DNA from: Candidatus Eiseniibacteriota bacterium
GTDB lineage: Bacteria > Eisenbacteria > RBG-16-71-46
Direction of reading: 5' to 3'
Length of the DNA: 64,000 bases
NCBI GenBank assembly: GCA_041483195.1
Contig: JBGPFC010000004.1
Coordinates: 133,020 to 197,019, forward strand
The translations under genes and the position numbers were made by a program. Under the pieces are notes generated by a model. The model was not told the DNA's origin, made no database searches, and saw only the letters and a program-made list of their open reading frames with translations. This document shows, in pieces, positions 13,890 through 44,440 of the stretch (position 1 is its first letter; the number at the start of each line of letters is the position of its first letter).

Positions 13890-13916
13890 CCGCCCGTTGC
13901 AGGTTGCAGCGGGCGG
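13890..13916 (-). terminator. GC-rich hairpin just after the true stop of the radical SAM gene
   Basis: CCGCCCG-CTGCA-ACC-TGCAA-CGGGCGG on the minus strand, immediately after TAG 13917-13919. No U-tract. Confidence 0.35.
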
Positions 13917-15368
13917 CTAGAGAGGCGCGAACTGCGCCTCGGTGGGTTCCGCTCAGCAATACCATGGCTCGGTGAGAAAGGGCACCGGCGGCCGGTGCGG
14001 CGCCCGTGCGGCGGCCGCGAGCGGCCGCACGCGCTCCCCGGACGCCTCGACCGCGAGCGCGTACGCCCGATCGAACACCACCCCCCGCGCTTCGCCCCGG
14101 CCTGAGGCCTCGGCCACCATCGACTGCACCCGTCCGCACAGCGCGTCGACCCGCGGCTCGGGATGCCGCCACGGATGGCACAGCAGGACCGGGTCGAGCG
14201 GCTGCGCGAGCGCGCGGGCCTCCGGCAGCTCGAGCAGCCGGGACCCCGGCGGGATCAGCAACCGAATCCCGAGCTGAACCGGCGCCACGTGCTCGATCAG
14301 CCCGAGTTCGGCGATGGTCTCGAGCAGCTCGGCGTAGCCCGCCCGCGAGATCCACGGGGTGAACGCGACGAAGGTGGGATGCAGGATCAGGGACTCCTCC
14401 CGGAACAGTCGCACGACCTCGACGAAGTCGGCGCGAGTATGCCCCTTCTCGAGCCGCTCGAGCACGCGGTCGTCCACCGATTCCACCGCGCTCGTCACGA
14501 ATCGGCACCCGGTCTCGCGCAGGGTGGCGAGCTGTTCACGGTGCGCGAGCAGATGCTCGATCTTGATCGTGACGTCGTAGGTGAGGGCGGGGAACTCGGC
14601 GTGCAGCGCCCGCACCAGCGGTATCGCGTGCCCGATGCCGTTCCAGAAGTCGGGATCGCCGAACGTGACGTGCCGCGCCCCGGCCTCGACCTGGCGTCGC
14701 ACGTCATCGAGCACGATCGCGCGCGGCACGACCCGGAAGCGCCCGCCGTAGATCGGAACCACCGGGCAATGGCGGCACAGGTGTTTGCAGCCACGGCTCG
14801 ACTCGGTGTAGCCCACGGTGAGGAGCGAGCCGTCGCCCGGATCGAGCCGCGCGTAGCGATCGAGCGCGGGCAGCCCCTCGCGATCCGGCGCGAGAAACGC
14901 GAGGCGTTCGAGCGAGACGCCGTCGTGCGCGCGTGCGTCGGGGCCCCGGCCCGCGAGGCCCATCGCCCATTCGGTGAGCCCCCGCTCGAACTCACCCGAG
15001 AAACACGCCTCGACGCCCAGCGCCCGCAGCGCTCCCGCGTTCATCGCGGCATAGAGTCCATACGCGGAGAGCGGCGCGCGCGGGTTGAGCGCGCGGACCC
15101 GCGCGATCACCGGCGCCGCGAGCCGGGTCGCGGTATGCATCGGGAGGAAGAAGGCGACGGCGTCGGCCGACCCCGCCGCGACCTCGTCCAGCGGATCGAC
15201 CGCGAGATCGCAACAGACGACCGAGGCCCCCGCGCGGCGCAGCCACGCCGCCGGGGAGGCGAGTCCGAATGGCTGACGGCCGAGGTCGTAGGTCGAGATC
15301 AGCACCACGCGCGGCGCATGGCGCGGGGCGCGGGACTCGGGCGCCTCGGACGACACCGCGCTCTTCAT
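13917..15368 (-). CDS. CUAEP/CCAEP-tail radical SAM selenoprotein (UGA at 13953-13955 read as Sec)
   Basis: B12-binding-like N-domain, SRGCKHLCRHC (CxxxCxxC). The C-terminus reads PFLTEPWYC-TGA-AEPTEAQFAPL-TAG, with a SECIS-like hairpin after the TGA. Confidence 0.88.
13922..13940 (-). promoter_or_regulatory. Putative bacterial SECIS element
   Basis: GAGGCGC-AGTTC-GCGCCTC: perfect 7-bp stem starting 12 nt 3' of the in-frame UGA, G at loop position 2. Confidence 0.75.
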
Positions 15369-15402: not shown

Positions 15403-16008
15403 TCATTCGAGCGGCGAGCGGCCGCCTTTCGCGGGCTGGTAATAGGGGTTCCTCCCCCCCGCGTGATCGGTGCTGTCCACGATCTCGCGGATCGCGGGGA
15501 CCGCGTCGCGGATCCGCACCTCGATGCCCTGCTTGAGCGTGACGTCCACCATGCCGCAGCCCTGGCAGCCGCCGCCGAGGCGGATGTACGCGACGTCGCC
15601 CTTCACGTCGAGCAGCGTCACGTTGCCGCCGTGCGAGGCCACGGCCGGATTGATCTCGTCGTCGAGCACCTTCTGGACCGCCAGCGCCGTGGGGTCCGAC
15701 CACAACGGGTTCGGGTTGTCGATCTTGAATCCGCTGCCGTATGACGATTCGACGTAGTCGATGCTCGCCCCCGTCAGCAGCGGCACGCTGGGCTGGTCGA
15801 TCATCACCGGCAGGCCGCCCACCTCGAATCCCACGTCCTCCGGCGTGCGCTCGCTCTCCGGCACGAACGCGAGCCGGTACTGGAATCCGCCCGGGCCGCG
15901 GCCCACGACGCCCATTCGGAGGCCGAGCCCGTCGCGGCCCTCGGCCTGCATCAACTCGCGAATCTTCGCGAGCCCCGCCTCGGAAATCGTGATCAACGCT
16001 GCCGTCAT
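15403..16008 (-). CDS. nfuA: Fe-S cluster carrier NfuA (A-type-like domain + NifU-C domain)
   Basis: ITISEA..., GASIDY...GFKIDNPN, EINPAVASHGG, GGGCQGC, TLKQGIE, DSTDH...NPYY. Confidence 0.92.
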   Translation of the reverse strand: MTAALITISEAGLAKIRELMQAEGRDGLGLRMGVVGRGPGGFQYRLAFVPESERTPEDVGFEVGGLPVMIDQPSVPLLTGASIDYVESSYGSGFKIDNPNPLWSDPTALAVQKVLDDEINPAVASHGGNVTLLDVKGDVAYIRLGGGCQGCGMVDVTLKQGIEVRIRDAVPAIREIVDSTDHAGGRNPYYQPAKGGRSPLE

Positions 16009-17306
16009 GCCTCGCTCCCTTCAACCCCGGATGCCCGCGCCCCGGCGCGCGGCGTGCGGGGATCGATGTCGAACGTCAGGTGCCGATGCGCCTCGCGCAA
16101 CGCCGCCTCCACCTGCTCGGGCAGCTCGCCGCGCGCGAAGATGAAGCCCAGGTAACGATCCCCCTCCGGCAGCGGTACGAGCTCCTGCCCGGGCGGAACG
16201 GTGATGCGCAGCTCGTCGATCAGGTCCACGCCGCGCGCGGCGTCAACGCCGCCCACGGCGCGCAGCACGCCCGCCCGCGGGATGGGAATCATCATGACCC
16301 CCGAGGCGCAGCGTTCGCGCTCGAGCGCCGCGACGTCGACGCCGAGCGCATCGCTCAGAATCAGCGCCTCGAGCGACACGCCGTCGCCGAATCGGAGCGA
16401 GCGCGAGCATAGCCCGCCGATGCTGCGCGGGGCAATCTCGAGCGGCCACGCGCCGGCCGTGTTCCAGCGCAGCTCGGCGTGCACCGGTCCCTGCCCGAGC
16501 CCGATCGCGGCGACGGCCCGCGCGGCCGCCGCCTCGATCGCCCGTTGCGTCGCACGATCCAGGCGTGAAGGGGTGACGTAGATCGTCTCCTCGAAATACG
16601 GGCCATCGAGCGGATCGGGCTTGTCGAAGATCGCGAGCACCCGCAGCGCCCCGCGCGTGACCAGCCCTTCGACCGCGACTTCGATCCCGGGAATGTAGTC
16701 CTCGATCAGGATCTCCGTGGCGAGCGCCCCACCCGCCGCCGCGACCTCGGGGCGCGCGAGCAGCGCTGCGATGCGCCGGAACGCCACGGCCAGCGCCCCG
16801 GGATCGTCCGCGCGGATCACCCCGCGGCTCGCCGCGAGGAACAGCGGTTTGAGCACGCAGGGGTACTTGACCCGCGCCGCGATCGCCTCCGGCCCTGCGC
16901 TCACCGCGCAGCGCGCGATCCGCGGCGTGAGCAATCCCGCGCGCGCGAAGGCCTCGCGCGTCGCGAGCTTGCTGCGGGCGGTGCGCACCGCCGCTGCGGA
17001 ATGGTGCGGCAGGCGCAGCGCCTCTGCGGCGCGCGCGGCCAGCAGCACGCCCTCGTCGTCGGCGGCGATCACAGCGTCCAGCGGATGCTCGCGCGCGAAC
17101 GCCTCGATCGCGCGGGTCGCGGCGTCCGCGTCTCCGAACGCGAGCGCCAGGTTCCCGGCCGGGTTGAGGGGCGCGAGCGCCTGCGGCCGGTCGGTCGCGA
17201 CGACCGCCTCCGCGCCGATGGCCCGCGCGGCGTCGAGGAACGCACCGGCGCGGTAGGACGCCGTGGTCATCAGCAGCAGCACGCGCGGTCTGCGGGATGC
17301 GCTCAA
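16005..17306 (-). CDS. ATP-grasp domain protein (L-amino-acid-ligase-like)
   Basis: YPCVLKP..AASRGV, IEDYIPGIE, IFDKPDPLDGPYFEETIYVTPS, HAELR, EIAPRSIGG. TTG start overlaps the upstream stop (TTGA); the stop overlaps the nfuA ATG (ATGA). Confidence 0.88.
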   Translation of the reverse strand: MSASRRPRVLLLMTTASYRAGAFLDAARAIGAEAVVATDRPQALAPLNPAGNLALAFGDADAATRAIEAFAREHPLDAVIAADDEGVLLAARAAEALRLPHHSAAAVRTARSKLATREAFARAGLLTPRIARCAVSAGPEAIAARVKYPCVLKPLFLAASRGVIRADDPGALAVAFRRIAALLARPEVAAAGGALATEILIEDYIPGIEVAVEGLVTRGALRVLAIFDKPDPLDGPYFEETIYVTPSRLDRATQRAIEAAAARAVAAIGLGQGPVHAELRWNTAGAWPLEIAPRSIGGLCSRSLRFGDGVSLEALILSDALGVDVAALERERCASGVMMIPIPRAGVLRAVGGVDAARGVDLIDELRITVPPGQELVPLPEGDRYLGFIFARGELPEQVEAALREAHRHLTFDIDPRTPRAGARASGVEGSEA

Positions 17307-21658: not shown

Positions 21659-21961
21659 GCGCGGGGAGGGCGAGCGCGCGGAGCGGCAGGGCCCGGACCC
21701 GGGCGCGGCGAGCGCATGGAACGATGGGCGGACATCGGGGCGGCGGGGCTCCTCGCGGTGGGGGTCTCGGCCATCTTAGCATTCCCGCGGCGAGCGGGGC
21801 GCTGGCCGCCGCGCCGCTCGACCCGCGATCCGTCCCATCATTCCGGCCTCGACAGGCGCGCGCCGCCGATTCTACACTCGACGCTTCGCATCCCTTCATC
21901 GCGCCGGCGCCCCGCAGCGGGCCGCCGGTGCCGCGCCGCTCCATCGACTCACGAGGCCGCC

Positions 21962-23023
21962 ATGTCACCGCCGCATTCGCTTCGATCTCGGGCGAGCGCC
22001 ATCTCCGCGCTCGCGCTGATCTGCATGGCGCTCGCGCCGGTGCCCGCCGCGGCGACCGACCCTCAGCCCCCCACGCCGCAGGAGCAGCAGATCTTCCAGC
22101 AGAAGCTGGCCCGGTTGAAGTCTCACTCCAACCTGTACCCCGCGAACGGGGGAATCGCGAGCGTGCTGAACAGCCTGGACCACATGGTCACCATCCCGCT
22201 GATCTGCGGCACCGGGGATCCGGTCACGCGCGTCGAGGTCCGCGTGAACACCACGTTGAAGAAGTGGGACGCCGCGCTGGTGAAGGCCCGGCTCGGGAGT
22301 GAAGGCAAGGTCGGCGCCTACCTCTGGAACTACGAGGTCACCGTGGTCGACGGGGTCAAGATCATCACTTGCGACAACTGGATCATGCTCGACCCGGCCG
22401 TGAGCGGGCCGCAGGAGGGCAATCCGCCGATCGGGCCGATCGCCGACGAGACGCTTCTCTACCACGAACTGCTGCACGGGCAGCTGCTGCTCGACTCGGT
22501 GATGACGTCCGCGGCCTGGAAGCAGAACGTGTGCGCATGCAACGCCCCCGACCTCGCATCGAGCGACCCCGACCACGCCGTGATCGCGGGACTCGAGGAG
22601 GCGTTCATGACCGCGCTCGCGGGCGGCACCTCCGCCGTGCGCATGGTCCGTCCGCCCGCGCAGCCCGCGGACGGTGACGGCAAGTTCTCGATCGACCTGG
22701 GCGCGATCGAGAAGGAGAACCTCACGGTCACGCCGTACTATCCCGACGGCAGCAACGTGGATCCGGCAGACGTCACCGTCGAGCTGCCCGAGAACGGGCA
22801 CGTCATCGTCAAGGGCAAGCTCACCGACAAGACGAAGCGCGGCTACATCCTGGTGCACGTCGATCCGCCGACCCTCTACGTCGTCGCGGGGATCGAGCAG
22901 GCGATCGTGATCCTTCCGACCTCGGTTGCCCCGGGGCTCGACGGATGGCGGCTCGGCCTGCTGGCTGCGCTGATCCTCGCGAGCGCGCTGGTGGTGGTGA
23001 GGCGCAGGGAGCGCCGGGGCTGA
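21962..23023 (+). CDS. Secreted HExxH-motif protein with a C-terminal membrane anchor / sorting-like signal
   Basis: Signal peptide (ALALICMALAPVPAAA), LYHELLHG, and a C-terminal APGLDGWRLGLLAALILASALVVVRRRERRG. Confidence 0.7.
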   Translation: MSPPHSLRSRASAISALALICMALAPVPAAATDPQPPTPQEQQIFQQKLARLKSHSNLYPANGGIASVLNSLDHMVTIPLICGTGDPVTRVEVRVNTTLKKWDAALVKARLGSEGKVGAYLWNYEVTVVDGVKIITCDNWIMLDPAVSGPQEGNPPIGPIADETLLYHELLHGQLLLDSVMTSAAWKQNVCACNAPDLASSDPDHAVIAGLEEAFMTALAGGTSAVRMVRPPAQPADGDGKFSIDLGAIEKENLTVTPYYPDGSNVDPADVTVELPENGHVIVKGKLTDKTKRGYILVHVDPPTLYVVAGIEQAIVILPTSVAPGLDGWRLGLLAALILASALVVVRRRERRG

Positions 23024-24535: not shown

Positions 24536-25792
24536 CTAGTGCCCGTGCCCTCCGCTCCGGGATAACACGTCGGCGACCACCACCGACGGGTAGCGGCTCA
24601 GGAAACCCTGCACCACCCAGCCGAACAGGCCGAGAAATCCGATCGTCACGCCGATCTCCGGCAGGCCCAGCCACACCCGGTCGGGGTTGAGCGACGGCAT
24701 CACCAGGATGTGCCGCTCCATCCACAGGCCGGAGAGGATGATCAGGCTGAACAGCGCGAGCCAGAACGGGCTCTTCTTGGTCGCCATGTTCATGAGCCCC
24801 AGGAAGGGGAGCAGGAAGACGAACGTGAACGCCGTGAAACCCAGCGCCCGCCACGGCTCCTCGAAGCGCAGGAACACCCAGCCGGTCTCCTCCGGCAGGT
24901 TGCCGTACCAGATGACGAGATACTGCGCCCAGAATTGATAGACCCAGAAGATGCTGAAGCCGAACGCGAGCTTTCCGATGTCCCAGAAATGGTCGCGCGT
25001 GATATAGGCCTCGAGGCGATAATGCCCGCGTAGGCGCGTGAGGAGAAACGCGACCATCGCGATGCCGGAAAGGAACGCGCCCATGAAGAACCACCAGCCG
25101 AACAGCGTGCTCGCCCACTCCGGCGTGAGCGACATGACGTAGTCCCAGCACATCACCGTGTACACGATCGCGTACAGCACGCAGATCAGCGGCGCGCGCT
25201 TGGCGAGGCGGTCGCGCTGCCACTCGACCTCCTCCGCGTCGCCGCGCCAGCCCTCGCACAGCTTCTCGTAGGCGGGCCGGAGCGTCGGATCGACGTGCGA
25301 CTTGAGCAGGTAGGCGTCGGTGCGCAGCGAGACCCGCACCATGTCGCGCGACAGCCACCACAGCAGGCCGAGCCCGATCAGGGTGCGCGCGTAAAGGAAC
25401 GGCACGTTAAGATACGCGGCCTGCCGCGGCTCGACGTATTTCGTCCACGGCAGATAGGTCCGGATCCCCATGACGAGCAGGATCACCATGAGCCCGTAGC
25501 CGATCGGCAGGAAGGCCGAGAGCGATTCGGCCACCCGCACCACCGGCCCGGCCCAGCGGCCGTTCGCGAGCCGGATGCCGCATGCCAGCACGATCGCGCC
25601 CTGCGCGATGCCCATCCAGTAGAGCGTGTTGATCGCGTAAGAGCCCCACGCCCGCTGCGGCTCGCGCACGAACAGGAACGCGAGGGAGGCCAGGCCGATC
25701 GCCATGCACAGCATCCACAGCTGGCGCCGCCGCGGATTGGGCGTGACCGGCAGCTTGCCGGCGATGTCCGCGAGGATCGCGTCGTGGCTCAT
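24536..25792 (-). CDS. actF: Alternative complex III membrane subunit ActF
   Basis: Polytopic; WDYVMSLTPEWASTLFG, WDIGKL.F..FW.Y..WAQYLVIWYGNLPEE; last gene of the act cluster. Confidence 0.85.
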   Translation of the reverse strand: MSHDAILADIAGKLPVTPNPRRRQLWMLCMAIGLASLAFLFVREPQRAWGSYAINTLYWMGIAQGAIVLACGIRLANGRWAGPVVRVAESLSAFLPIGYGLMVILLVMGIRTYLPWTKYVEPRQAAYLNVPFLYARTLIGLGLLWWLSRDMVRVSLRTDAYLLKSHVDPTLRPAYEKLCEGWRGDAEEVEWQRDRLAKRAPLICVLYAIVYTVMCWDYVMSLTPEWASTLFGWWFFMGAFLSGIAMVAFLLTRLRGHYRLEAYITRDHFWDIGKLAFGFSIFWVYQFWAQYLVIWYGNLPEETGWVFLRFEEPWRALGFTAFTFVFLLPFLGLMNMATKKSPFWLALFSLIILSGLWMERHILVMPSLNPDRVWLGLPEIGVTIGFLGLFGWVVQGFLSRYPSVVVADVLSRSGGHGH

Positions 25793-26340
25793 CGCGGGCT
25801 CGTCTTCTGCCGGTGGCGGATGAAGTTCACGATGTTCCACGCCTCCTCGGCGGTCACCTGCGCGCCGTAGGCCGGCATGACCACCCCGCCGAAGCGGATG
25901 TACGAGTAGATGAATCCGTCCTTGCGATTGCGGGTCGCCTCCGCGAGCAGATCGGGCGGCGGCATGAAGAGCGGCGCGACCGGACCGTCGCCGGCGAGGG
26001 CCGTGCCGTGACATGGCACGCAGGTCTTGATGAACTTCTGCTCGCCACGCGCGATCGAGGAGTCGGAGGGCTCGACCGGGTTCACGCGGGATTGCCCGCG
26101 CTCGTACGGCGGGTCCTCGCCGGCCTGGTCGCGGCCGGTCACCGGCACGCTCGCATCGTCCGGCGCGCGCACCACGAGCTTCTGCGGCGGGATCGCGACC
26201 GAGGTGCGCATGTCGCGGATCGGGTAATAGCTCAGGTGAGTCGCCGAGCGGGTCGCGTCCCGGCAGCCCTGCTTCGCGTTGCCCACCGTGAACATCGTGA
26301 GCACGCCGAGCAGCACCACGCCCACGATCGCCTTAGGCAT
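25789..26340 (-). CDS. actE: Alternative complex III monoheme cytochrome c ActE
   Basis: Single CVPCH, GDGPV, MPAYG, AWNIVNFIR motifs. Confidence 0.85.
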   Translation of the reverse strand: MPKAIVGVVLLGVLTMFTVGNAKQGCRDATRSATHLSYYPIRDMRTSVAIPPQKLVVRAPDDASVPVTGRDQAGEDPPYERGQSRVNPVEPSDSSIARGEQKFIKTCVPCHGTALAGDGPVAPLFMPPPDLLAEATRNRKDGFIYSYIRFGGVVMPAYGAQVTAEEAWNIVNFIRHRQKTSPR

Positions 26341-26887
26341 GGACCGTCACCTCCTCGGCGCCGTGGCCACGCATCGTCTCCTGCGCCCGCAGCGCCTCCT
26401 CGCCGGAGCACGGGACCCAGATGCCGATCCGGTCCTGGCTGAACCTCGGATCGTACGGGGCCTTCGCCTTGAGCTGCGGCAGCCGCGCCAGCGCCAGCAT
26501 GCCGAGCAGGTTGGCGATCGAGCCCAGCAGGATCATGGACTCGTAGCCGATCACGACGAACGGCGGCAGCGAGATCAGCTCCTTGCCGCCCACCACCAGC
26601 GGGTAGGAGAGCACCGAGTAGATGCACAGCGCGAAGCCTCCCGTGAGGCCGCACACCGCGCCGCCGAACGTCACCCATCGCACCAGCGACGGACCCTTCT
26701 CGAGCGCCGATTCGATCGAATGATACGGCACCGGCGAGTACACGCTCAGCTGCCGATGCCCCTGCTGGCGGAGCGTGCGCACCGCCTCCGTGGCGTCGTC
26801 CACGTAGTAGTAGATCCCCATCACGCCGTGGAACTTCTGCGGCGGGCCGGCGATGAGCCTTTCGACGGTGCGCTCGACGGTCTGCAT
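26333..26887 (-). CDS. actD: Alternative complex III subunit ActD (DUF3341)
   Basis: YSPVPYH, two TM helices, YPLVVGGK, YE..IL, YDPRFSQD. Confidence 0.87.
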   Translation of the reverse strand: MQTVERTVERLIAGPPQKFHGVMGIYYYVDDATEAVRTLRQQGHRQLSVYSPVPYHSIESALEKGPSLVRWVTFGGAVCGLTGGFALCIYSVLSYPLVVGGKELISLPPFVVIGYESMILLGSIANLLGMLALARLPQLKAKAPYDPRFSQDRIGIWVPCSGEEALRAQETMRGHGAEEVTVHA

Positions 26888-26892
26888 CAGGC

Positions 26893-28263
<1,371 letters not shown>

Positions 28264-28276
28264 GCGCGGCCCTCGT

Positions 28277-31200
28277 TCATACGGTGTCCTGCTTCACCCG
28301 CTTCAGGTAGGTGACCCCGGGTTTGGTGTTGAGCTCGTTGAGCACCCAGTAGCGCCGCGCTCCGAACGAGCGCTGGTGCACCGCGCTCGCGGGATCGGCG
28401 AGGTCGCCGAACACGATCGCCTGGGCCGGGCAGGACTGCGCGCACGCGGTTTGAATCTCGCCGTCGCGCAGCTTGCGGTTCTCGTCCTTCGCGTTGCCCT
28501 TGCCCTCGAGGATGCGCTGGACGCACATCGTGCACTTCTCCATGACGCCCTTCGAGCGCACGGTGACGTCTGGATTGAGCTGCCAGTTGAGCGGTTCCGG
28601 GAACGCGAAGGTGGCCTTCTCGGGCGCCGCGTAATCGAACCAGTTGAACGCGCGCACCTTGTACGGGCAGTTGTTGGAACAGTAGCGGGTGCCGACGCAG
28701 CGGTTGTACACCTGGGCGTTGAGGCCCTCGGGGTTGTGATAGGTCGCATAGACCGGGCACACCGTCTCGCACGGCGCGTCGCCGCAGTGCTGGCACATCA
28801 TGGGCACCATGCGAACGTCGCTGGCGCCGGGCTCCAGCCTCTCCTCGAAGCGCTCGATACGGATCCAGCTCATCTCGCGTCCGCGCTGGATCAGCTCGGG
28901 GCCCACCGTCGGGATGTTGTTCTCCGCGTAGCACGCCACGACGCACGCTGCGCAGCCGGTGCACGCGTTGAGATCGATCGCCATCGCCCAGCGGTGCTCG
29001 GCGTGCTTGTAGCTGCCCTGGTCGACCGGGATCGCGCGCGGGCCGCGCGTGTGATGCTCCGGCTCGAACGCCGTGATCGCGTGGGCGGGCGGCACGTAAC
29101 CCTCGGGGTGCTGCATCGGCGTGGTGTGGAGCCCGGGCCGGGTCTGCGATGGCTTAGGGGGCTCCGGACCCTCGAAGTGGCCGGAGAGCGTCTGGTGAAT
29201 GTTGTAGATCGGCCGATCGGCGGCGCCGCGGGTCGCGACCTGCGCGAACAGCGCAGACACCGGGATGACCTGCGCGATGCCGCGGTCGTGCTGCCGCTTC
29301 TCGCGCTGGGTGGTCACGAAGTCCATCGCCTTCGCGCCCTTCGCGAGCCGCGCGCGCGTGCTGAGATACGCGACCGCGCCGGAGGCCGCGTCCTGCGCGG
29401 GCGGGAGCAACGCGAGCGCGTTCACGCCGCGGTCCTTCGCGTAGCGCCCGTACGCCGTGTGGCCCTGGCCGAGCGGAACCGCCGCGACGTCCCTGCGCAT
29501 TCCGCCGTAGAGGTAGGCCGGCAGCTCGATGGCGCCCGCCTCGGTCTCGATCCGCACCGGATCGCCGGTCTGGACCCCCAGCTTGCCCGCGGTCTCGGGA
29601 TGGATCTCGACCCAGGTGCCCCACACGCCCTTGCTGGTAGGATCGGGAAGCTCCTGGAGCCATGGCTTGTTCGCGCCGCGCCCGTCGTAAAACGCCTGCG
29701 ATGGGTAGAGCAGGAGCGCGACCTCGCCCGGGCCCCTGAGGCCCGGGGAGGCGAACGCCGGTGTCGCGTTCCACCGCACCGGCGTCGGACTCGCGTCCTC
29801 CCACACCCCGCCCTTCGCGAGCGAGTCGCGCCAGAAGGTGTCGAAGTCGCGCCCCGCCCCGAATCGCTGATGCTGGGGCTTCCACTGGGCCTTGAGATAA
29901 TCGGCCCAGGTCGCGGGCCATGCCGCCCCGCGGCCGGCCGCCTTGCCGAGCGCCAGCAGCGTTTCGCCGGCGGGCCGGGCGTCGAACATCGGGAGCTTCT
30001 GCATCGCGGGCTGCGTGAGCGCGTGCACGCCGCGGGCGGTCTCTGCGTCGCCCAGGGTCTCGAGCCAGTGCGTGGAAGGCAGCAGCAGGTCGCAGCGGTC
30101 CGCGGTTTCGTCCAGCACCGGCGAGAGCGAGATCTTGAAGATCACCCTGTCCATCGCCGCCGCGAACTCGGCCCAGGCCGGCACGGCGTAGACGGGATTC
30201 GCGCCGCTGACGATCAGCACGTCCACCTTGCCGTCGCCCATCGCGCCCATCAGCCGCTGCAGCTCGCCGAAGCCGCCGACCGCCTCGTAGCTCGGGGTGC
30301 GATCGAAACGCACCGTGCGGCCGACGTTGCCCGCGACGTAGTTCAGGAGGTTGACCGCTGCGTGGAGCGCGACCGACTGATCGCTCTGCGCCGCGATGCC
30401 GCCGGTCACCGCCAGCGACGGCCCGGCCTTCGCGAACGCGCGCGCCAGCTCCCGCACCTTCGCGGCCGGCACGTCGCTCTGTCGCTCGACCGCCTCGGGC
30501 GTGAACGCGGCCACGGCGTCGCTCAACGCGCCGCGCTCCGCGAGGGCGGGACCGAGGCTCTCGCTCAGGATGACGCGGCTCATCCCGAGCGCGAGCGCCA
30601 TCTCGCCGCCGGGACGTACCGCGATCCACTCGTCGGCGTTGGCGCCGGTCAGCGAGAGCCGGGGCTCGACCGTCACGAAGCGCGCCGGATTGTCCGCGGT
30701 GCGCGCCGTGGCGAGGCCGCGCGCGTGCCCGACCGGCGAGAGCCAGGTCTCGACGAAATCGGCGCCGAACGCGACGATCATGCGCGCGGCGGCGAAGTCG
30801 AAGTTCGGGATCGACGCCTGTCCGAAGGTGCGGCGGTTGGCCTCGCGCAGACTCTCGTGCGCGAACGGCTCGTATACGAGATGCGTCGCGCCGATCGCCG
30901 CGCTCCACTCGGCGGCGAGCCGCTGGAGCGAGCCGGTGGCGTTGTCGGTGAGCAGCGCGACGCCCCGCTTCGCCTTCACCGCTTCGCCGAGCTTCCCGGC
31001 CGCGAGCTGCAGCGCGGCCTCCCAGTCGATCGTCTTCCACGCGCCGTTTTCCTTGACCATCGGCGAGCGCACCCGGTCGGGATCGTAGAGCCCCTGCAGT
31101 CCCGCCTGCCCGCGCGAGCACAGCCCGCCCCGATTCACGGGATGCGCGGGATTGCCCTCGATCTTGATCGCGCGGCCCTCGCGCGCCTTGACCAGCACGC

Positions 31201-31393
31201 CGCACCCCACGGGGCATTCGCGGCAGGTGCTCGCGTACCAGTAGGGCACGCCGGGGAGGATGTCGGTGGGCGCGACCAGGTACGGGATGAGCTTCTCGAC
31301 AGGGGGCTGCGCGCAGCCCGCCGCCGCGCCGGCGACTCCGATCCCGACCAGTCTCAGGAAATCGCGGCGATTGAAGACGAAGTCGTCGCTCAT
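28277..31393 (-). CDS. actB: Alternative complex III subunit ActB (Tat-exported molybdopterin-oxidoreductase-like domain + 4Fe-4S dicluster domain)
   Basis: NRRDFLR Tat motif, ANKPWLQELPDP, CTGCAACVVAC, CQHC..APCETVCP, RCVGTRYCSNNCPY, RSKGVMEKCTMC. Confidence 0.93.
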   Translation of the reverse strand: MSDDFVFNRRDFLRLVGIGVAGAAAGCAQPPVEKLIPYLVAPTDILPGVPYWYASTCRECPVGCGVLVKAREGRAIKIEGNPAHPVNRGGLCSRGQAGLQGLYDPDRVRSPMVKENGAWKTIDWEAALQLAAGKLGEAVKAKRGVALLTDNATGSLQRLAAEWSAAIGATHLVYEPFAHESLREANRRTFGQASIPNFDFAAARMIVAFGADFVETWLSPVGHARGLATARTADNPARFVTVEPRLSLTGANADEWIAVRPGGEMALALGMSRVILSESLGPALAERGALSDAVAAFTPEAVERQSDVPAAKVRELARAFAKAGPSLAVTGGIAAQSDQSVALHAAVNLLNYVAGNVGRTVRFDRTPSYEAVGGFGELQRLMGAMGDGKVDVLIVSGANPVYAVPAWAEFAAAMDRVIFKISLSPVLDETADRCDLLLPSTHWLETLGDAETARGVHALTQPAMQKLPMFDARPAGETLLALGKAAGRGAAWPATWADYLKAQWKPQHQRFGAGRDFDTFWRDSLAKGGVWEDASPTPVRWNATPAFASPGLRGPGEVALLLYPSQAFYDGRGANKPWLQELPDPTSKGVWGTWVEIHPETAGKLGVQTGDPVRIETEAGAIELPAYLYGGMRRDVAAVPLGQGHTAYGRYAKDRGVNALALLPPAQDAASGAVAYLSTRARLAKGAKAMDFVTTQREKRQHDRGIAQVIPVSALFAQVATRGAADRPIYNIHQTLSGHFEGPEPPKPSQTRPGLHTTPMQHPEGYVPPAHAITAFEPEHHTRGPRAIPVDQGSYKHAEHRWAMAIDLNACTGCAACVVACYAENNIPTVGPELIQRGREMSWIRIERFEERLEPGASDVRMVPMMCQHCGDAPCETVCPVYATYHNPEGLNAQVYNRCVGTRYCSNNCPYKVRAFNWFDYAAPEKATFAFPEPLNWQLNPDVTVRSKGVMEKCTMCVQRILEGKGNAKDENRKLRDGEIQTACAQSCPAQAIVFGDLADPASAVHQRSFGARRYWVLNELNTKPGVTYLKRVKQDTV

Positions 31394-31400
31394 CTGGCCC

Positions 31401-31931
31401 CTAGTGATGGCACGCGATGCAGTCCATGGTGGTCGGGAAGCGCGGATCGTCGAGGCGCTGGCGGTGGCAGCTCAGGCACCAGCCCATCTTGAGCGATGGG
31501 TACTGGTAGACGACTGCCATCTCCTGGACGGGGCCGTGGCATTCCGCGCACTGCATCCCGGCGCGCACGTGCCGCTTGTGATTGAACTTCACGTGCGAGG
31601 GCAGGCGGTAGACCTCGGCCCATGGCACCTGCTCGCCCCGCTCGAAATAGCCGGCCAGCTTCATGATCTCGGGCCGGTCGGCGCGGGCCAGCTTGTGGCA
31701 CCCCATGCAGGTGCTGACCGGCGGGATGTTCGCGATCGGGGACTTGTCTGCGCTGTAATGGCAGTAAAGGCAATTCATGCCGAGCTTTCCGGCATGGATC
31801 TGGTGGCTGAAGTTGATGGGTTGCGCGGGCCCTTTTCGGTCGCCCATCTGCACCGAAAACGACTGCGTGAAGGCCGCGGTGCCGGCGGCGAGGGTGGACA
31901 GCACGGCGACGACGACGAGGGCTCTTTTCAT
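31401..31931 (-). CDS. actA: Alternative complex III pentaheme cytochrome c ActA
   Basis: QPINFSHQIH and five CxxCH motifs (CLYCH, CMGCH, CAECH, CLSCH, CIACH). Confidence 0.92.
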   Translation of the reverse strand: MKRALVVVAVLSTLAAGTAAFTQSFSVQMGDRKGPAQPINFSHQIHAGKLGMNCLYCHYSADKSPIANIPPVSTCMGCHKLARADRPEIMKLAGYFERGEQVPWAEVYRLPSHVKFNHKRHVRAGMQCAECHGPVQEMAVVYQYPSLKMGWCLSCHRQRLDDPRFPTTMDCIACHH

Positions 31932-35464: not shown

Positions 35465-36937
35465 TCAGTAGCGCGGCACCGCCGGATCGATCTCGCGCGA
35501 CCAGGAGTCGATCCCGCCTCGCAGATTGCGGAGCTTGCGGAATCCCGCGCGCCTGAGCATCTCGAGCGCGCGCATGCTGCGGGTCCCATGGTGGCAATGC
35601 AGCACGATCGGGCGGCTCGAATCGAGCTCCGCGAGCCGTTCCGGCAACGTCGCGAGCGGGATCAGCCGCGCGCCCGGGATGCGCGCGATCTCGAACTCGT
35701 GAGGCTCGCGCACGTCGATCAGCACCAGGTCCTCGCCGCGCGCCTGAAGCGCCTGCAGCTCCTTCACCGTGAGCTCGACCCCGTCCGCTTCTGCGTTCGC
35801 CTGCTCGGTGGGCGTGAGCCCGCAAAATTGCTCGTAGTCGATGAGCGCCGTGATGCTGCGGCGCTCGCCACACAGCGGACAATCGGGGTCCTTGCGCAGC
35901 GTGAGCTCCCGGAAGCGCATCGCCAGCGCGTCGAACAACAGCAGCCGACCGATCAGCGTCTCCCCCACCCCCAGAATGAGCTTCAGCGTCTCGATGCCCT
36001 GGATGACGCCGATCACGCCCGGCAGCACGCCCAGCACGCCGCCCTCTGCGCACGATGGCACCAGCCCCGGCGGCGGCGGATCAGCGTAGAGGCACCGGTA
36101 GCACGGGCCGCGCGCGGCGTCGAAGACACTCGCCTGCCCCTCGAAGCGGAAGATGCTGCCGTACACGTTGGGCTTCCCGAGCAGCGCGCAAGCGTCGTTC
36201 ACCAGGTAGCGCGTTGCGAAGTTGTCGGTGCCGTCGGCGACGATGTCGTAGCCGCGGATGATGTCGAGCGCGTTCCCGCTGGTGAGCCGCGTCTCGTGCG
36301 TCTCGACCCGCACCCCCGGGTTGAGATCGGCGAGCCGCGCCCGCGCCGATTCCAGCTTCGGCCTCCCCACGTTCGCGGTGCCGTGGAGGATCTGGCGCTG
36401 GAGATTGCTCTCGTCCACCACGTCGAAGTCCACGAGCCCGATGCGGCCGACGCCGGCCGCCGCGAGATAGAGCGCGAGTGGCGAGCCCAGCCCGCCGGCG
36501 CCGACGATCAGCACGCTCGCGGCCTTGATCTTGCGCTGGCCGTGCAGCCCGACCTCGGGAAGGATGAGGTGGCGGCTGTAGCGGAGCAGCTCCGGCTGCG
36601 AGAGCGGCGGCATGCCGTCCTCCCCGGTCGCCCACGCCGGCGCGCGGCGCGGCGGCGGGCCCGCCCCGCCCGCGATGCTCGGCACGATCGAGAGCGCGTC
36701 GTCCGGGCCGAGCGGCGTCGCCTCGCGCTCGAGATGCCGCACGTCCACGTCGTTGCGATAGACGTTCACGAAGCGCCGCAGCTGGCCCGCCTCGTCGTAC
36801 AGATGGCGGCGCAGCCCGGGATGGCGGTCCACCAGCGCGCGCAGCGCTTCGCCAACGGTCGCGGCCTCGACCTCGACCGCGGGGAGCTGGCCGGCGTAGG
36901 CCCGCAGCGGGGTCGGGATGTGAATGCGGGTCGTCAT
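35465..36937 (-). CDS. moeB: Fusion of a MoaD/ThiS/CysO-like sulfur carrier + MoeB/E1 adenylyltransferase + rhodanese
   Basis: IPTPLR...RRFVNVY...SIVPSIAGG (Ubl, residues 1-91); RYSRHL, GAGGLG, SNLQRQ, CYRC, SCAEGG, CPLC; DVREPHE...CHHGTRS rhodanese. Confidence 0.93.
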   Translation of the reverse strand: MTTRIHIPTPLRAYAGQLPAVEVEAATVGEALRALVDRHPGLRRHLYDEAGQLRRFVNVYRNDVDVRHLEREATPLGPDDALSIVPSIAGGAGPPPRRAPAWATGEDGMPPLSQPELLRYSRHLILPEVGLHGQRKIKAASVLIVGAGGLGSPLALYLAAAGVGRIGLVDFDVVDESNLQRQILHGTANVGRPKLESARARLADLNPGVRVETHETRLTSGNALDIIRGYDIVADGTDNFATRYLVNDACALLGKPNVYGSIFRFEGQASVFDAARGPCYRCLYADPPPPGLVPSCAEGGVLGVLPGVIGVIQGIETLKLILGVGETLIGRLLLFDALAMRFRELTLRKDPDCPLCGERRSITALIDYEQFCGLTPTEQANAEADGVELTVKELQALQARGEDLVLIDVREPHEFEIARIPGARLIPLATLPERLAELDSSRPIVLHCHHGTRSMRALEMLRRAGFRKLRNLRGGIDSWSREIDPAVPRY

Positions 36938-37401
36938 GATCTATCTCCGGTCGCGCGCTGCGCCGCGGGTGCGGCGCCCGGCACGAGCTCCAGCGGTTCG
37001 GGTTCGAATCGCGAGCGATCCTCGGCGAGCCGCCACGCGCGCGAGTCGCGCGCCGCGCCGCCCTCGACGCTCACGATCAGGTACGAATAGTAGGGCCATG
37101 CGTGCTCGAGATCGAATGCCGAGGGCCGGGCGGGGTGATCCGGGTGCGAATGGAAGAAGCCGAGGACCTCGAGCCCTTCCGCGCGCGCCGCGCGGTCCGC
37201 CTCGAGAAATTGCTCGGGGGCGATCAGGTAGCGGTTGCCCCTCGAGTCCTCGCGCCGGTTCTCGAAAGCGACCACACGCTCGACCTCGCGCCACGCCCCG
37301 GCTTCGCGCCCGAGCATCACGCCGCAGCCCTCCTCGGGATACGCGCGACACAGGTGTGCGTGGATCTGCTCGGTGTGCAACGCGCGCATGCGCAGGCTCA
37401 T
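36934..37401 (-). CDS. JAMM/MPN+ (M67 family) metalloprotease, Mec-like
   Basis: YPEEGCG and FFHSHPDHPARPSAFD (E...HxH-x7-S-x2-D). ATGA overlaps on both sides. Confidence 0.92.
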   Translation of the reverse strand: MSLRMRALHTEQIHAHLCRAYPEEGCGVMLGREAGAWREVERVVAFENRREDSRGNRYLIAPEQFLEADRAARAEGLEVLGFFHSHPDHPARPSAFDLEHAWPYYSYLIVSVEGGAARDSRAWRLAEDRSRFEPEPLELVPGAAPAAQRATGDRS

Positions 37402-38336
37402 GCCTCCTCCCAGAGCGGATCGCCTAGGTAGCGCTCCGCGCCGTCGGGGAGGATGCACACCACCACGCCGCGTTCGATCCCGCGCGCGACCCGCTCCGCC
37501 GCGACCACCGCGGCGCCCGCGGACCAGCCGAGCAGGAGTCCGCGGCGCGCCTGGGATTTCGCCATCGCGATCGCGTCCTCGCTCGTGACCGTGAGGGTCC
37601 GCTGGTGCGCGCGCGGGTCGTAGATCGCTGGCACCATCGCGGTCGGCAGGTGCTTGAGCCCTTCGAGCGCGTGGTACGGCGAATCGGGCTGCACCGCGAT
37701 CGCCTCGAGCGACGGGTTCAGCTCCCGCAGCCGGCGCGCGCAGCCCACCAGCGTGCCCGAGGTGCCCAGCCCCGCGACCAGATGCGTCACGCGACCCCGC
37801 GTCTGCGCCCAGATCTCCGGGGCGGTGCCGTGATAGTGGGCGCGCCAGTTCGCCGGATTCGAATACTGGTCGGGGTAGAAATAGCGTTCGGGGTGCGCTG
37901 CGAAGCGGCGCCGCGCCTCGAGGATGGCGCCGTCGGTGCCTTCCATGGGATCGGTGAGCACCAGCGCCGCGCCCAGCGCCGACATCAGGCGGCGCCGGCT
38001 CTCGCCGGCGTTCGATGGCACGCACAACTCGACGGGAAAGCCGAGGGCGGCTCCGATCCAGGCGTATGCGATGCCGGTGTTGCCGGAGGTCGCGTCGATG
38101 AGCGTGCGTCCCGGCGCGAGCGCGCCCGAGCCGCGGCCGGCGTCGATCATCGCCCGGGCCGCGCGATCCTTCACCGAGCCGCCGGGATTGAACCACTCGG
38201 CCTTGCCCCAGACCTCGACCCCCTCGCGCAGGCCATCGAGGCCCTCGATCGAAGCCAGCGGGGTATCCCCGATTCGATCCAGGAGGCCGGGGTTCGAGCG
38301 GGCGGCGGTCAGCAGGCGGTCTTCGATGGGATCCAT
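37398..38336 (-). CDS. PLP-dependent cysteine synthase family (CysM-like)
   Basis: IGDTPL, NPGGSVKDR, ATSGNTG, DQYSNPAN, GLGTSGT, PDGAERYL. Confidence 0.9.
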   Translation of the reverse strand: MDPIEDRLLTAARSNPGLLDRIGDTPLASIEGLDGLREGVEVWGKAEWFNPGGSVKDRAARAMIDAGRGSGALAPGRTLIDATSGNTGIAYAWIGAALGFPVELCVPSNAGESRRRLMSALGAALVLTDPMEGTDGAILEARRRFAAHPERYFYPDQYSNPANWRAHYHGTAPEIWAQTRGRVTHLVAGLGTSGTLVGCARRLRELNPSLEAIAVQPDSPYHALEGLKHLPTAMVPAIYDPRAHQRTLTVTSEDAIAMAKSQARRGLLLGWSAGAAVVAAERVARGIERGVVVCILPDGAERYLGDPLWEEA

Positions 38337-42322: not shown

Positions 42323-42718
42323 TCAGCGGGCCGCGGCCGGGGCCGTCCCCGGAAGCGCCCGCAGCGCGGCGACGAACGTCAGCAGGAACGCGAGGTCGAT
42401 CCACGCGAACGGCACCCACATCGCGGGCATCTGGCCCTGGGCGTAGTACGTCAGCACCGGCAGCGCGTAGGCGAGCTTGAGCATGATGCCGAGCTTGATG
42501 ATGTCGCGATTGCGCTCCGGCGCCTGCGCCACGAACCCGAAGCCGATCCCGAAGATCGCGATCAGGAGCGCGGGCACCTGGATGTAGGCCGGATGATTCG
42601 GCAGCGTCACCCCGAACCGCGCGTAGACCGCGCGCCACGCGAACAGGAACCCCGCGCCGAGCAGGAAGTCGTAGAGCCCGGCGACGACGAACAGCGGACG
42701 GATCCATTCACGCTTCAT
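42323..42718 (-). CDS. Small 4-TM membrane protein of unknown function
   Basis: 131 aa hydrophobic, GLYD, KLAY, WIDLAF; start overlaps the radical SAM gene end. Confidence 0.75.
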   Translation of the reverse strand: MKREWIRPLFVVAGLYDFLLGAGFLFAWRAVYARFGVTLPNHPAYIQVPALLIAIFGIGFGFVAQAPERNRDIIKLGIMLKLAYALPVLTYYAQGQMPAMWVPFAWIDLAFLLTFVAALRALPGTAPAAAR

Positions 42719-44063
42719 GGGACGGTTCCTCCCTCGTGGCGGGTGGCGCGGCGTGGCGCGAGTCGCGCAGGTCGCGGAAGAAGCGCGTGCGGCGCGCCTC
42801 GATGAAGCTCTTCTCGTACAGCCGGCGGCTGAGGTCGACCAGACCCTGCTGGAGCCGCTCTGGCGACATGCCGGCCGGCACGAAGTTCACGTCGAACAGC
42901 GTGCACCGTTCCCACGCGCCGTCCTCGATGATGCGGCCCTCCCGCCGCAGCCGCTCGTGGAGCGGCGTGCCGGGGAACGGCGTCAGCACCGTGATCTGGA
43001 CCTCGTAGAGGCCGGAGCGCTCGACGAACTCGTACACCTGGTCGAAGATCGCATCGGTGTGGCCGTCGAGCCCGAGCACGAAGCAGCCGTTCACGGTGAC
43101 GCCGTGCGACTGGATCACCCGCACCGCGCGCTCGTAGTCGTCGAGCCGGCGCCGTTTCCAGTTGCTGCGCAGCTCGATGCCGTCGAGCCCGGCGGCGACC
43201 GGGCTCTCGAGCCCGATCAGCACCTGCCGGCAGCCGCTCTCGCGCATCAGCTCGAGCAGCTCCTCGTCGCCCGCGATCGAGACGTCGGCCTCCGTGAACC
43301 ACTTCACCCGCTCGTCGCGCAGCGCGGCGAGCAGGCGCTTCGCGTGCTCGCGGTCGACGAAGCTGTTGTCGTCCGCGAACTCGATGAAGGGATTCGGCCA
43401 GAGCTCGCGAATGCGGCGGATCTCGGCGATCACAAGCTCGACCGGCTTGAGCCGGTACTTCGGCGTGAGCAGGATCGAGCTGGCGCAGAAGTCGCAGCGA
43501 TGGGGGCATCCGCGGCTGGTCTGCACCGTGAGGCGGTTGTAGCGGGCGACGTCGAGCAGGTCGTAGCGCGGCATCGGCGCGTCCGCGAGATCGAACCATT
43601 CGTCCGGCGGGGGGCGGTACTCGCGCCGCAGCCGCCCGCGCCCCCAGTCGTCGATCACGCGCGGCCAGCTCATCTCGCCCTCGCCCACCACCGCGACCGC
43701 GCCGTGGGCCAGCGCCTCCTCGGGCCGCACGCTGACGTGCAGCCCGCCCATGACCACCGGGACGCCGCGCTCCCGGTAGATGTCGGCGACGCGATACGCG
43801 TCGGCGATCTGGGCCGAGTACGAAGCGACCGCCACCAGGTCGTAGCCGCGCGGCAGCTCCGGCTCCTCGCGCAGATCGGGGATCTCGCGGTACTCGATCT
43901 CGACGTCCGGCGGGGTGAGCGCGGCCAGCGTCAGCAGCGACAGGCTCGGGAGCGACGCGATCACCTTGCTGCGCTCGACGAAGCCCGGCAGCGTGAGACC
44001 GATCGCGGTGAGCTCGGGATCGGCGGCGCGCACGCCGCTCATGGCGATCAGCCCGAGCTTCAC
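42708..44063 (-). CDS. B12-binding-domain radical SAM protein
   Basis: LPSLSLLTLAALTP, VVMGGLH, GEGE, TSRGCPHRCDFC, FADDN, IGLES, LTPFPGTPL; GTG start overlapping the upstream stop. Confidence 0.9.
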   Translation of the reverse strand: MKLGLIAMSGVRAADPELTAIGLTLPGFVERSKVIASLPSLSLLTLAALTPPDVEIEYREIPDLREEPELPRGYDLVAVASYSAQIADAYRVADIYRERGVPVVMGGLHVSVRPEEALAHGAVAVVGEGEMSWPRVIDDWGRGRLRREYRPPPDEWFDLADAPMPRYDLLDVARYNRLTVQTSRGCPHRCDFCASSILLTPKYRLKPVELVIAEIRRIRELWPNPFIEFADDNSFVDREHAKRLLAALRDERVKWFTEADVSIAGDEELLELMRESGCRQVLIGLESPVAAGLDGIELRSNWKRRRLDDYERAVRVIQSHGVTVNGCFVLGLDGHTDAIFDQVYEFVERSGLYEVQITVLTPFPGTPLHERLRREGRIIEDGAWERCTLFDVNFVPAGMSPERLQQGLVDLSRRLYEKSFIEARRTRFFRDLRDSRHAAPPATREEPSHEA

Positions 44064-44440
44064 GGCCGCAGCATCCCGAGCACGATCAGCGCCGTGCCCA
44101 GCACCAGGCTCACGACCGGCACCGCGAACAGCGGCTGCAGAGCGGGCCTCCACGCCATGAGCCCGCAGCAGGCGGGCATGGTGACGCCGCCCGCGATCAG
44201 CGCCCAGGACGCGACCTCGCCCGCTCCCGGCGCGAGCCGGAGGCGCTCGCCGCCGAGCGCGAACAGGATGTTGATGATGCCGAGGCCGAGGAAGGAGATG
44301 TGACCGAGGCGGATCAGCCGACGCGGGTGGGATGCGTACCCGCCGAGCCAATCCTGGCGCTGGAAGCGCATCCCGAGCGTGAGGCCCGCGAGCAGCCCGG
44401 CGAGCAGCCAGATCCAACCGAAGAGTTCGTTGCGCGGCAT
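44060..44440 (-). CDS. Small 4-TM membrane protein of unknown function
   Basis: WLGGYASHPRRLIRLGHISFLGLG; coupled to the radical SAM gene (GTGA). Confidence 0.75.
   Translation of the reverse strand: MPRNELFGWIWLLAGLLAGLTLGMRFQRQDWLGGYASHPRRLIRLGHISFLGLGIINILFALGGERLRLAPGAGEVASWALIAGGVTMPACCGLMAWRPALQPLFAVPVVSLVLGTALIVLGMLRP

Follow-up and report, generated by a model that had tools for sequence, protein, structure and literature searches.

A 64,000-nucleotide stretch of DNA from a Candidatus Eiseniibacteriota bacterium (assembly GCA_041483195.1, contig JBGPFC010000004.1, forward-strand positions 133,020 to 197,019; this whole stretch is referred to here as the window) carries on its minus strand a gene that encodes a radical S-adenosylmethionine (SAM) enzyme and contains an in-frame UGA codon that is almost certainly read as selenocysteine (Sec). 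The genes on this strand are arranged in the order glycosyltransferase-like gene, ATP-grasp ligase gene, nfuA, radical SAM gene, and RND efflux genes; the stop codon of the ligase gene overlaps the start of nfuA, and a TTG start at 17306 was inferred for the ligase. The main features of the locus are the following.

13917..15368, minus strand: gene for a radical SAM protein with a CUAEP tail, a predicted selenoprotein (483 amino acids with Sec472; 471 amino acids if ended at the UGA)
13953..13955, minus strand: in-frame UGA, probable Sec codon directly after Cys471 (from Cys codons in homologues and the Sec machinery)
13917..13952, minus strand: tail AEPTEAQFAPL read past the UGA, with the real stop codon TAG at 13919-13917 (from the reading frame and homologues)
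14766..14789, minus strand: CxxxCxxC motif of the SAM-cleaving [4Fe-4S] cluster; its cysteines C194, C198 and C201 do not vary in any of the 67 aligned rows
13922..13940, minus strand: putative bacterial selenocysteine insertion sequence (SECIS) with a 7-bp stem and the 5-nucleotide loop AGUUC, G at loop position 2 (from folding, published criteria and covariation)
13890..13916, minus strand: second hairpin beyond the stop codon (folding z = -2.9), probably incidental
15403..16008, minus strand: NfuA-like Fe-S carrier (A-type and NifU domains), directly upstream of the radical SAM gene (from profile hits)
16005..17306, minus strand: ATP-grasp ligase of the L-amino-acid-ligase type, with ATPgrasp_N, ATP-grasp_4 and LAL_C2 domains (from domain hits and co-occurrence)

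The product of the radical SAM gene combines a Rossmann-type, B12-binding-like N-terminal domain with a radical SAM barrel (PF04055, 49 bits against a cut-off of 29.5). Read with Sec, the 483-amino-acid product scored 618.4 bits (cut-off, 500) against the NCBIfam equivalog model NF040546, with residues 21-481 aligned to profile positions 1-467 of 468, and it ends in the C-(U/C)-A-E-P motif of this family (EPWYC-U-AEP); judged by this full-length match, the gene is a CUAEP/CCAEP-tail radical SAM (seleno)protein, as a sequence-only reading of the window had proposed. No difference from NF040546 was found, making the window gene an ordinary Sec-type member of a family that comprises at least 8000 sequence clusters. 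The next NCBIfam models were that of ArsL (NF040542, 249 bits) and then one at 45 bits. The same reading had also stated that the family lacks an established reaction, in agreement with the literature found, as far as accessible: the accessible part of bioRxiv 10.1101/2022.07.06.499078 lists the family as uncharacterized, proposes an interaction of CU motifs with atoms of heavy metals, and in its passage on NF040546 mentions neither the partner ligase nor a reaction. Neither "CUAEP" nor "NF040546" occurs in the main text of a selenoproteome review of 2026.

Selenocysteine recoding and the SECIS element

On the minus strand, the end of the gene reads GAG CCA TGG TAT TGC TGA GCG GAA CCC ACC GAG GCG CAG TTC GCG CCT CTC TAG; the open reading frame (ORF) list closes the protein at EPWYC (471 amino acids), and the C-terminus read with Sec is EPWYC-U-AEPTEAQFAPL. 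The frame is open past the TGA at 13953-13955 through AEPTEAQFAPL to the TAG at 13917, as previously claimed. Taken together, the comparative data given below make it almost certain that the UGA at 13955-13953 encodes Sec, aided by an in-frame SECIS, and that the protein carries a vicinal Cys471-Sec472 pair near its C-terminus. Sec recoding itself is not new, the family being already curated as a (seleno)protein, and the description of this Sec as "hidden" thus holds for gene callers and not for the databases. An annotation error is nonetheless corrected, as entries cut at the UGA (118 of 120 close database proteins, the 471-amino-acid database entry for the window protein itself, and a Thermomicrobium roseum plasmid-table entry) lose a residue that probably matters. 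In the latter case (plasmid NC_011961.1, 7977-9450 of the fetched region), the listed coding sequence ends in ESWFC-TGA and the frame runs on as AEPLEDPSGP with a stem-loop.

Homologues were compared at several distances. Among a panel of 61 related genomes, NF040546 was found in 18 (counting the genome of the window), and TGA is followed by AEP in 16 of these 18 loci, the other two being cut by contig ends. In a GTDB scan, represented here by the best 80 of 596 confirmed stretches and leaning to close relatives, mostly Acidobacteriota, the codon at the Sec position is TGA in 55 loci, TGC in 21 and TGT in 4, always within ExW[YF]C-(U/C)-xEP, and at least 10 residues follow this position in nearly all loci. 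Cys at the UGA position with the tail conserved beyond it, which the sequence-only reading had proposed to look for, is thus found in 25 of 80 loci next to 55 with TGA, and homologues that all end at WYC without an AEP extension, the outcome that it had named as contrary, were not seen; wherever DNA was read, TGA is followed by a conserved xEP. Among 150 distant representatives, compared at the protein level only, 80 have a readable tail, of which 38 stop at Cys, 41 run on as CCxxP and 1 differs. A tree of 95 family rows and 3 ArsL proteins contains 13-14 changes between Sec and Cys, at least 6-7 of which are forced by well-supported branches, so that the contrast between UGA and Cys genes does not reflect one inherited event. 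As Cys takes its place repeatedly, Sec is not essential to the chemistry; a natural Cys form occurs in a cultured actinomycete (L092). The closest named database matches include Candidatus Eisenbacteria and Methylomirabilota.

The genome of the window (4.17 Mb, 70% GC, 96.8% complete) encodes selA (552 bits), selB (353 bits) and selD (349 bits), all over their cut-offs, and one tRNA-SeC(TCA) on contig C9, adjoining selD; a genome without Sec machinery, likewise named in advance as contrary to recoding, is therefore not what was found. Two further genes serve as in-genome controls for Sec recoding. One is selD (C9:87187-88583, minus strand, adjoining tRNA-Sec), which carries its own in-frame Sec TGA (CAG-U-ASKLG) and a downstream hairpin; the other encodes a second ArsM-like methyltransferase (C1:43339-43923, minus strand; 195 bits, under the NF008823 cut-off) whose frame contains a TGA at KLWAS-U-IGGA, with a strong hairpin (-23.9 kcal/mol) downstream of it. 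ArsM-like copies of this type, with lower scores and one TGA, are present in approximately 10 relatives, and the second ArsM-like methyltransferase is probably another selenoprotein. Across the family, selA was found in 22 of 25 UGA genomes (hand-picked out of 55) and in 15 of 25 Cys genomes (Fisher p = 0.05), a weak contrast, as would be expected if Cys forms originate in hosts able to make Sec and if assemblies have gaps.

The perfect 7-bp hairpin previously noted 12 nucleotides past the UGA was located at 13940-13922, with stem arms GAGGCGC (13940-13934) and GCGCCTC (13928-13922) and loop AGTTC (13933-13929), and it formed in 3 of 3 folds containing its sequence. A 39-nucleotide piece folded at -14.7 kcal/mol (z = -2.0; 12 of 200 shuffles equally stable), and folding energy alone is modest evidence for a SECIS in a genome of 70% GC. 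Published rules for bacterial SECIS elements call for a loop of 3-9 nucleotides, a stem of 4-16 bp, G at loop position 1 or 2, a spacing of 16-37 nucleotides and a minimum free energy of at most -7.5 (accessible part of PMC13188914); a hand check showed that the window hairpin passes all of them (loop 5 nucleotides, stem 7 bp, spacing 19 nucleotides), with G then U at loop positions 2-3. In a sample of 69 UGA and 25 Cys genes, from which the window's own locus and one duplicate were left out, at least 6 of 7 stem pairs in the same register were present in 40 of 69 UGA genes vs 1 of 25 Cys genes; G in the loop was kept in 69 of 69 and 17 of 25, respectively. In an alignment of the 69 distinct UGA sequences, 80% of cells are paired (70% in shuffles, with 0 of 500 as high), as compared with 45-58% when the register is slid along the alignment, and changes on both sides occur in 5 of 7 pairs. 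Several points weigh against the element: 41 of 69 UGA sequences do not form the outermost pair, the count of covarying pairs was equalled in 209 of 500 shuffles, and the structure used in this test came from the window sequence itself. Still, the TGA-AEP continuation in relatives, the TGA and Cys codons at one position and the hairpin contrast between UGA and Cys genes together support the SECIS and Sec beyond chance, and the claim that the hairpin is a SECIS stands, on the published rules and on its tracking of UGA.

A second hairpin 3' of the TAG, also part of the earlier description, does exist, and it probably lies outside the feature, as no terminator-like site was found there (0 sites, and no U-tract) and the sequence past the stop differs in same-genus loci, where this hairpin is not kept; we accordingly rejected both a terminator role and a contribution to the SECIS.

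That the UGA is a genuine stop, with the protein ending at WYC, has a practically negligible probability. This explanation would account for the 118 of 120 close database hits and the 38 of 80 readable distant representatives that end at Cys, but wherever DNA was read such ends proved to be TGA plus a conserved xEP tail; the split between TGA and Cys codons, the repeated switches, the SECIS contrast and the complete Sec machinery led us to reject it.

The partner ligase and gene neighbourhood

The best clue to function, missed by the sequence-only reading, is the coupling of the enzyme to the neighbouring ATP-grasp ligase. In the relatives panel, the ligase is present in 16 of 18 genomes with the enzyme (both misses coincide with contig ends beside the gene) vs 0 of 43 genomes without it; in a panel of 201 genomes of a second phylum, centred on a genome (G088) picked for having the enzyme, the corresponding counts are 30 of 31 vs 6 of 170, with one of the six ligase-only genomes weak and another (G133) representing unpublished data. 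Kin among these genomes are not independent, and the counts thus overstate significance. The link is more than synteny, because several pairs are widely separated on the chromosome (by 2.4 Mb in G088, for example), and on the basis of co-occurrence the enzyme and the L-amino-acid-ligase-type protein very probably act in one pathway. Among the 80 GTDB loci, the ligase lies within the fetched flank in 52 (42 of 54 where each flank reaches 3 kb or more). In the cultured, Sec-form T. roseum, no ligase was found among the genes listed within 8 kb. A TGA flagged within the ligase of two relatives (G002 and G020) was considered as a further Sec site and rejected, as tblastn showed stop-free frames over the aligned part.

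The best solved relative of the ligase is BL00235 (PDB 3VOT; E = 1.6e-71), with which it shares a three-domain ATP-grasp fold and which is listed as making Met-Gly and Met-Met (accessible part of PMC6920838); an ESM Atlas search with the ligase returned only unnamed ATP-grasp/LAL clusters. An ATP-grasp gene is also present in two of three ArsL clusters viewed. In these Bacillota clusters with an RCCLKC-tailed ArsL (L105:1738-2961 and L106:433-1665), the ATP-grasp ligase occurs with a carboxymuconolactone-decarboxylase-family gene, hinting at an arsinothricin-containing peptide; in the accessible literature, nothing on a link between arsinothricin and ATP-grasp proteins was found.

Other neighbours in the 80 GTDB loci include YggX (40), DUF169 (10) and NfuA (8), and NfuA or YggX stands beside the module in 48 loci, never both together. 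In the relatives panel, NfuA adjoins the enzyme gene in 16 of 18 loci, upstream or downstream. Genome-wide, NfuA was found in 33 of 61 relatives (17 of 18 with the enzyme vs 16 of 43 without), and YggX in 73 of 201 genomes of the second phylum (18 of 31 with the enzyme, by hand count, vs 55 of 170 without); YggX had no match in the genome of the window itself. As both occur in many genomes that lack the enzyme, they were rejected as dedicated pathway members and kept as preferred, enriched neighbours. The module also shows local variation: YggX stays with the ligase in G088, where the radical SAM gene is 2.4 Mb distant, and in the genus of G018 (locus L006) and G036 the gene order is reversed (L006 begins with the radical SAM gene) and the match to NfuA is limited to its NifU half, with a TAG flagged. 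In 2 of 13 relatives' regions (L111:11540-12853 and L113), the module lies near an ORF that we take to resemble EgtB/SenA-type non-haem iron enzymes.

Relationship to ArsL and proposed reaction

By sequence, the closest characterised enzyme is ArsL, a full-length homologue. ArsL (RCCLKC tail, arsinothricin biosynthesis) has the same two-domain build and a C-terminal vicinal pair, thiol/thiol or thiol/selenol, in common with the window protein, which is 30% identical to annotated ArsL over 405 amino acids (E = 1e-58); the window protein nevertheless falls below the NF040542 cut-off (249 vs 450 bits). Of the 55 positions at which at least 90% of the 67 family rows agree, 39 are identical in all three ArsL proteins, including H233, D238, D240, F241, N243, D265, T267, H272, E296, P331, F336, P338 and W339, and in a MAFFT alignment the ArsL CC falls on C471/U472. 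The comparison with ArsL made in the sequence-only reading is thus closer than was implied there; the tree has no outgroup, and the sisterhood with ArsL rests on profile scores. ArsL cleaves SAM into methylthioadenosine (MTA) and a 3-amino-3-carboxypropyl (ACP) radical, and its CCxxC tail, which has no extra cluster, binds As(III), to which the ACP group is moved; its authors describe it as the sole CxxxCxxC enzyme producing an ACP radical (bioRxiv 10.1101/2024.02.01.577332). The accessible part of bioRxiv 10.64898/2026.04.29.721666 gives the same chemistry and proposes an electrophilic Fe-ACP species. Conservation with ArsL is suggestive of MTA/ACP chemistry of the kind that ArsL carries out on As(III).

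In the fold search, the top structural match was AprD4, a radical SAM diol dehydratase (PDB 6FD2; TM score 0.66, E = 1e-17) whose B12-like domain is cobalamin-free; AprD4 is only 19% identical, acts on an aminoglycoside and showed no aligned Cys-Sec tail, the sequence match stopping at residue 368. The AprD4 model scored 29 bits on the window protein, MiaB-type models scored 20-24 bits, and MiaB and RimO were among the fold matches.

An AlphaFold2 model built from 67 sequences, with Cys in place of Sec, has a mean predicted local distance difference test (pLDDT) score of 95 and consists of the Rossmann-type N-domain, the radical SAM barrel and two added helices (405-443). The tail (461-483) has pLDDT values of 90-93, the linker before it (441-460) dips to 82-86, and E467 and W469, just N-terminal of the C-U pair, are invariant in the family alignment, as are H233, H310, D238 and D240; the CxxxCxxC motif aside, no further Cys is invariant. 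These values and the invariant E467 and W469 fit a docked tail, and the Cys-Sec tail is therefore predicted to be ordered, with movement in turnover possible, rather than to form a flexible arm like those of thioredoxin reductase or MerA, as had been suggested.

We propose, by analogy with ArsL and with a probability of roughly 0.5, that the enzyme transfers an ACP group to a soft atom held on the Cys-Sec pair and that the methionine-like amino acid so formed is then ligated into a dipeptide. The enzyme would work without cobalamin, using non-canonical radical SAM chemistry to split SAM into MTA and an ACP unit; the docked Cys-Sec pair would present a soft acceptor atom beside the cluster, ACP transfer would yield the amino acid 2-amino-4-X-butanoate, and the ligase would join this product to a second amino acid, with NfuA or YggX possibly supplying or protecting the Fe-S cluster. 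The two-ligand site would suit an acceptor with two open positions. Given this mechanism, the foremost candidate for X, at somewhat below even odds, is a sulfur or selenium species, in line with the rarity of nearby ars genes and with neighbours that handle Fe-S clusters; methylarsenite or arsenite is a plausible if slightly weaker candidate, and another acceptor is rather unlikely. Methylarsenite is allowed by the missing third ligand together with the activity of the ArsL cysteine mutant "MCCA", reported as the best catalyst on methylarsenate (section 5.1 of PMC13598754, accessible part), whose tail, to judge from its name, may have two Cys.

A number of observations weigh against this proposal. 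ArsL has the three-Cys tail C-C-L-K-C, and C-U-A-E-P keeps two of its three arsenic ligands, the third ligand of CCxxC being absent; 16 of the 55 conserved positions are unlike ArsL (e.g., H200, P202, K269, H310, P373, E467 and W469), and there is an insertion of approximately 45 residues ahead of the tail. The cobalamin enzymes TsrM and OxsB rank close behind AprD4 in the fold search, with QCMT also near the top. On the ligase side, the pocket residue P85 of BL00235 aligns with E in the window ligase and with R in 16 of 26 family rows. The window ligase and the ArsL-cluster ligase have only 25% identity over 257 amino acids, and since the latter also has BL00235 as its best solved hit, the hit may be generic. 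Arsenic genes are also seldom nearby. ArsL lies in an ars cluster with ArsM, ArsQ and ArsN1, whereas the window gene lies beside nfuA and the ligase, outside any ars cluster; arsQ and arsN1 had no match in the window's own genome with the queries used. Near the enzyme, arsM was clearly found once in 92 loci (L077, plus one weak methyltransferase hit in L102), ArsR-like genes in 3 of 92, and arsQ, arsN1, arsB or an aquaglyceroporin gene in 0 of 92. Finally, no reaction or biochemistry for the CUAEP family was found in the literature searched, a search that left subscription journals largely outside.

The one clear ars group adjoining the enzyme among the 92 loci (L077:9291-13741) has DUF169 and a Sec-form enzyme, followed within 2.3 kb by arsR and arsM in divergent orientation and by an ArsC-like gene; ArsR-like genes flank two more DUF169-containing loci (L087 and L092). 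Co-occurrence with ArsM was discarded as a test for an arsenic substrate, being uninformative when 56 of 61 relatives have ArsM.

Alternative explanations and implications

An unlikely alternative is that an auxiliary iron or Fe-S centre held by the Cys-Sec pair and the conserved His and Asp residues (H233, H310, D238 and D240), or else a persulfide or selenosulfide on the pair, is consumed as the sulfur or selenium donor, as in LipA or MiaB/RimO-type insertion with ordinary 5'-deoxyadenosyl chemistry; NfuA or YggX would then rebuild it. NfuA regenerates the auxiliary cluster of LipA, and the frequent position of NfuA or YggX beside the module, the MiaB and RimO fold matches and the invariance of the His and Asp residues are consistent with such a role. 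However, the homologous ArsL tail carries no auxiliary cluster (bioRxiv 10.1101/2024.02.01.577332). The tail moreover offers two ligands only, with no invariant Cys outside the CxxxCxxC motif, NfuA and YggX are general housekeeping genes common in genomes without the enzyme, and MiaB-type models score far below ArsL. Quite unlikely, in turn, is a redox centre (selenenylsulfide) that, instead of holding the acceptor, would regenerate an oxidised intermediate or reduce a substrate, for example As(V) to As(III). A vicinal C-U pair near the C-terminus is the arrangement found in thioredoxin reductase, and 5 of the 13 regions from relatives have an OsmC-like gene, read from its ORF, close to the module; thiols must also reduce As(V) substrates in situ for ArsL (accessible part of PMC13598754). 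Yet the tail is predicted to be ordered, at least 10 residues lie beyond Sec in nearly all loci, unlike the penultimate Sec of thioredoxin reductase, and no recurring reductase was seen in the 60 largest clusters of neighbouring genes. To our knowledge, a dithiol does not reduce the one-electron radical SAM cluster.

We regard as improbable an attachment of the ACP or another radical to the enzyme's own Cys/Sec or to a partner protein, which would make the outcome a modified protein instead of a free metabolite. No transporter, self-resistance or tailoring gene recurs by the module, which would be odd for an exported metabolite, and a selenolate is a strong nucleophile, and an electrophilic Fe-ACP species is proposed for ArsL (accessible part of bioRxiv 10.64898/2026.04.29.721666); against this, the partner ligase family joins free amino acids, self-alkylation would mean a single turnover, and no conserved small substrate peptide was found among ORFs of at least 70 amino acids. 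Slightly more improbable still is a cobalamin-dependent (class B) radical SAM methyltransferase with a substrate-binding tail, to which the fold matches to TsrM, OxsB and QCMT, the best PDB sequence match (QCMT entry 9ccb, E = 2e-8) and a weak B12-binding hit (PF02310, residues 28-128, 23.4 bits) would point; this hit is under the Pfam cut-off of 32.1 bits, every B12 methylase model scored at most 45 bits, and cobalamin is reportedly not bound by the nearest relatives, AprD4 and the ArsL homologues (accessible part of PMC12931638).

Elsewhere in the window, a minus-strand operon at 24536-31931 resembles alternative complex III or Qrc (cytochrome c, a molybdopterin-like and Fe-S fusion, and membrane subunits; QrcB 297 bits and QrcC 207 bits, both under cut-off). 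A CysM-like cysteine synthase gene followed by a MoeB/MoeZ-like gene whose N-terminal extension may be a sulfur-carrier domain (35468-38336, minus strand) forms a sulfur-relay set approximately 20 kb from the module. At 42711-44417 (minus strand) there is a second radical SAM gene of the B12 type, which fits no assigned family (HpnJ 102 bits and Sden_1168 94 bits, both far under cut-off), and an ORF at 21900-23023 (plus strand) encodes a protein predicted to be exported, with a membrane anchor at its C-terminus and the HExxH-like sequence LYHELLHG, which had no Pfam or NCBIfam match.

The interest of these findings lies in function, as a large family adjoining ArsL is coupled almost one-to-one to an unstudied ligase. 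Tentatively, the CUAEP enzyme and its obligate ligase may constitute a two-enzyme pathway in which Cys-Sec presents a chalcogen or metalloid for ACP transfer and the product is ligated into a dipeptide, a module spread through uncultured Acidobacteriota, Chloroflexota, Methylomirabilota and other phyla. If true, ArsL-type non-canonical SAM cleavage would be extended to a family of at least 8000 sequence clusters, and selenocysteine would gain a substrate-presenting role in radical SAM chemistry.

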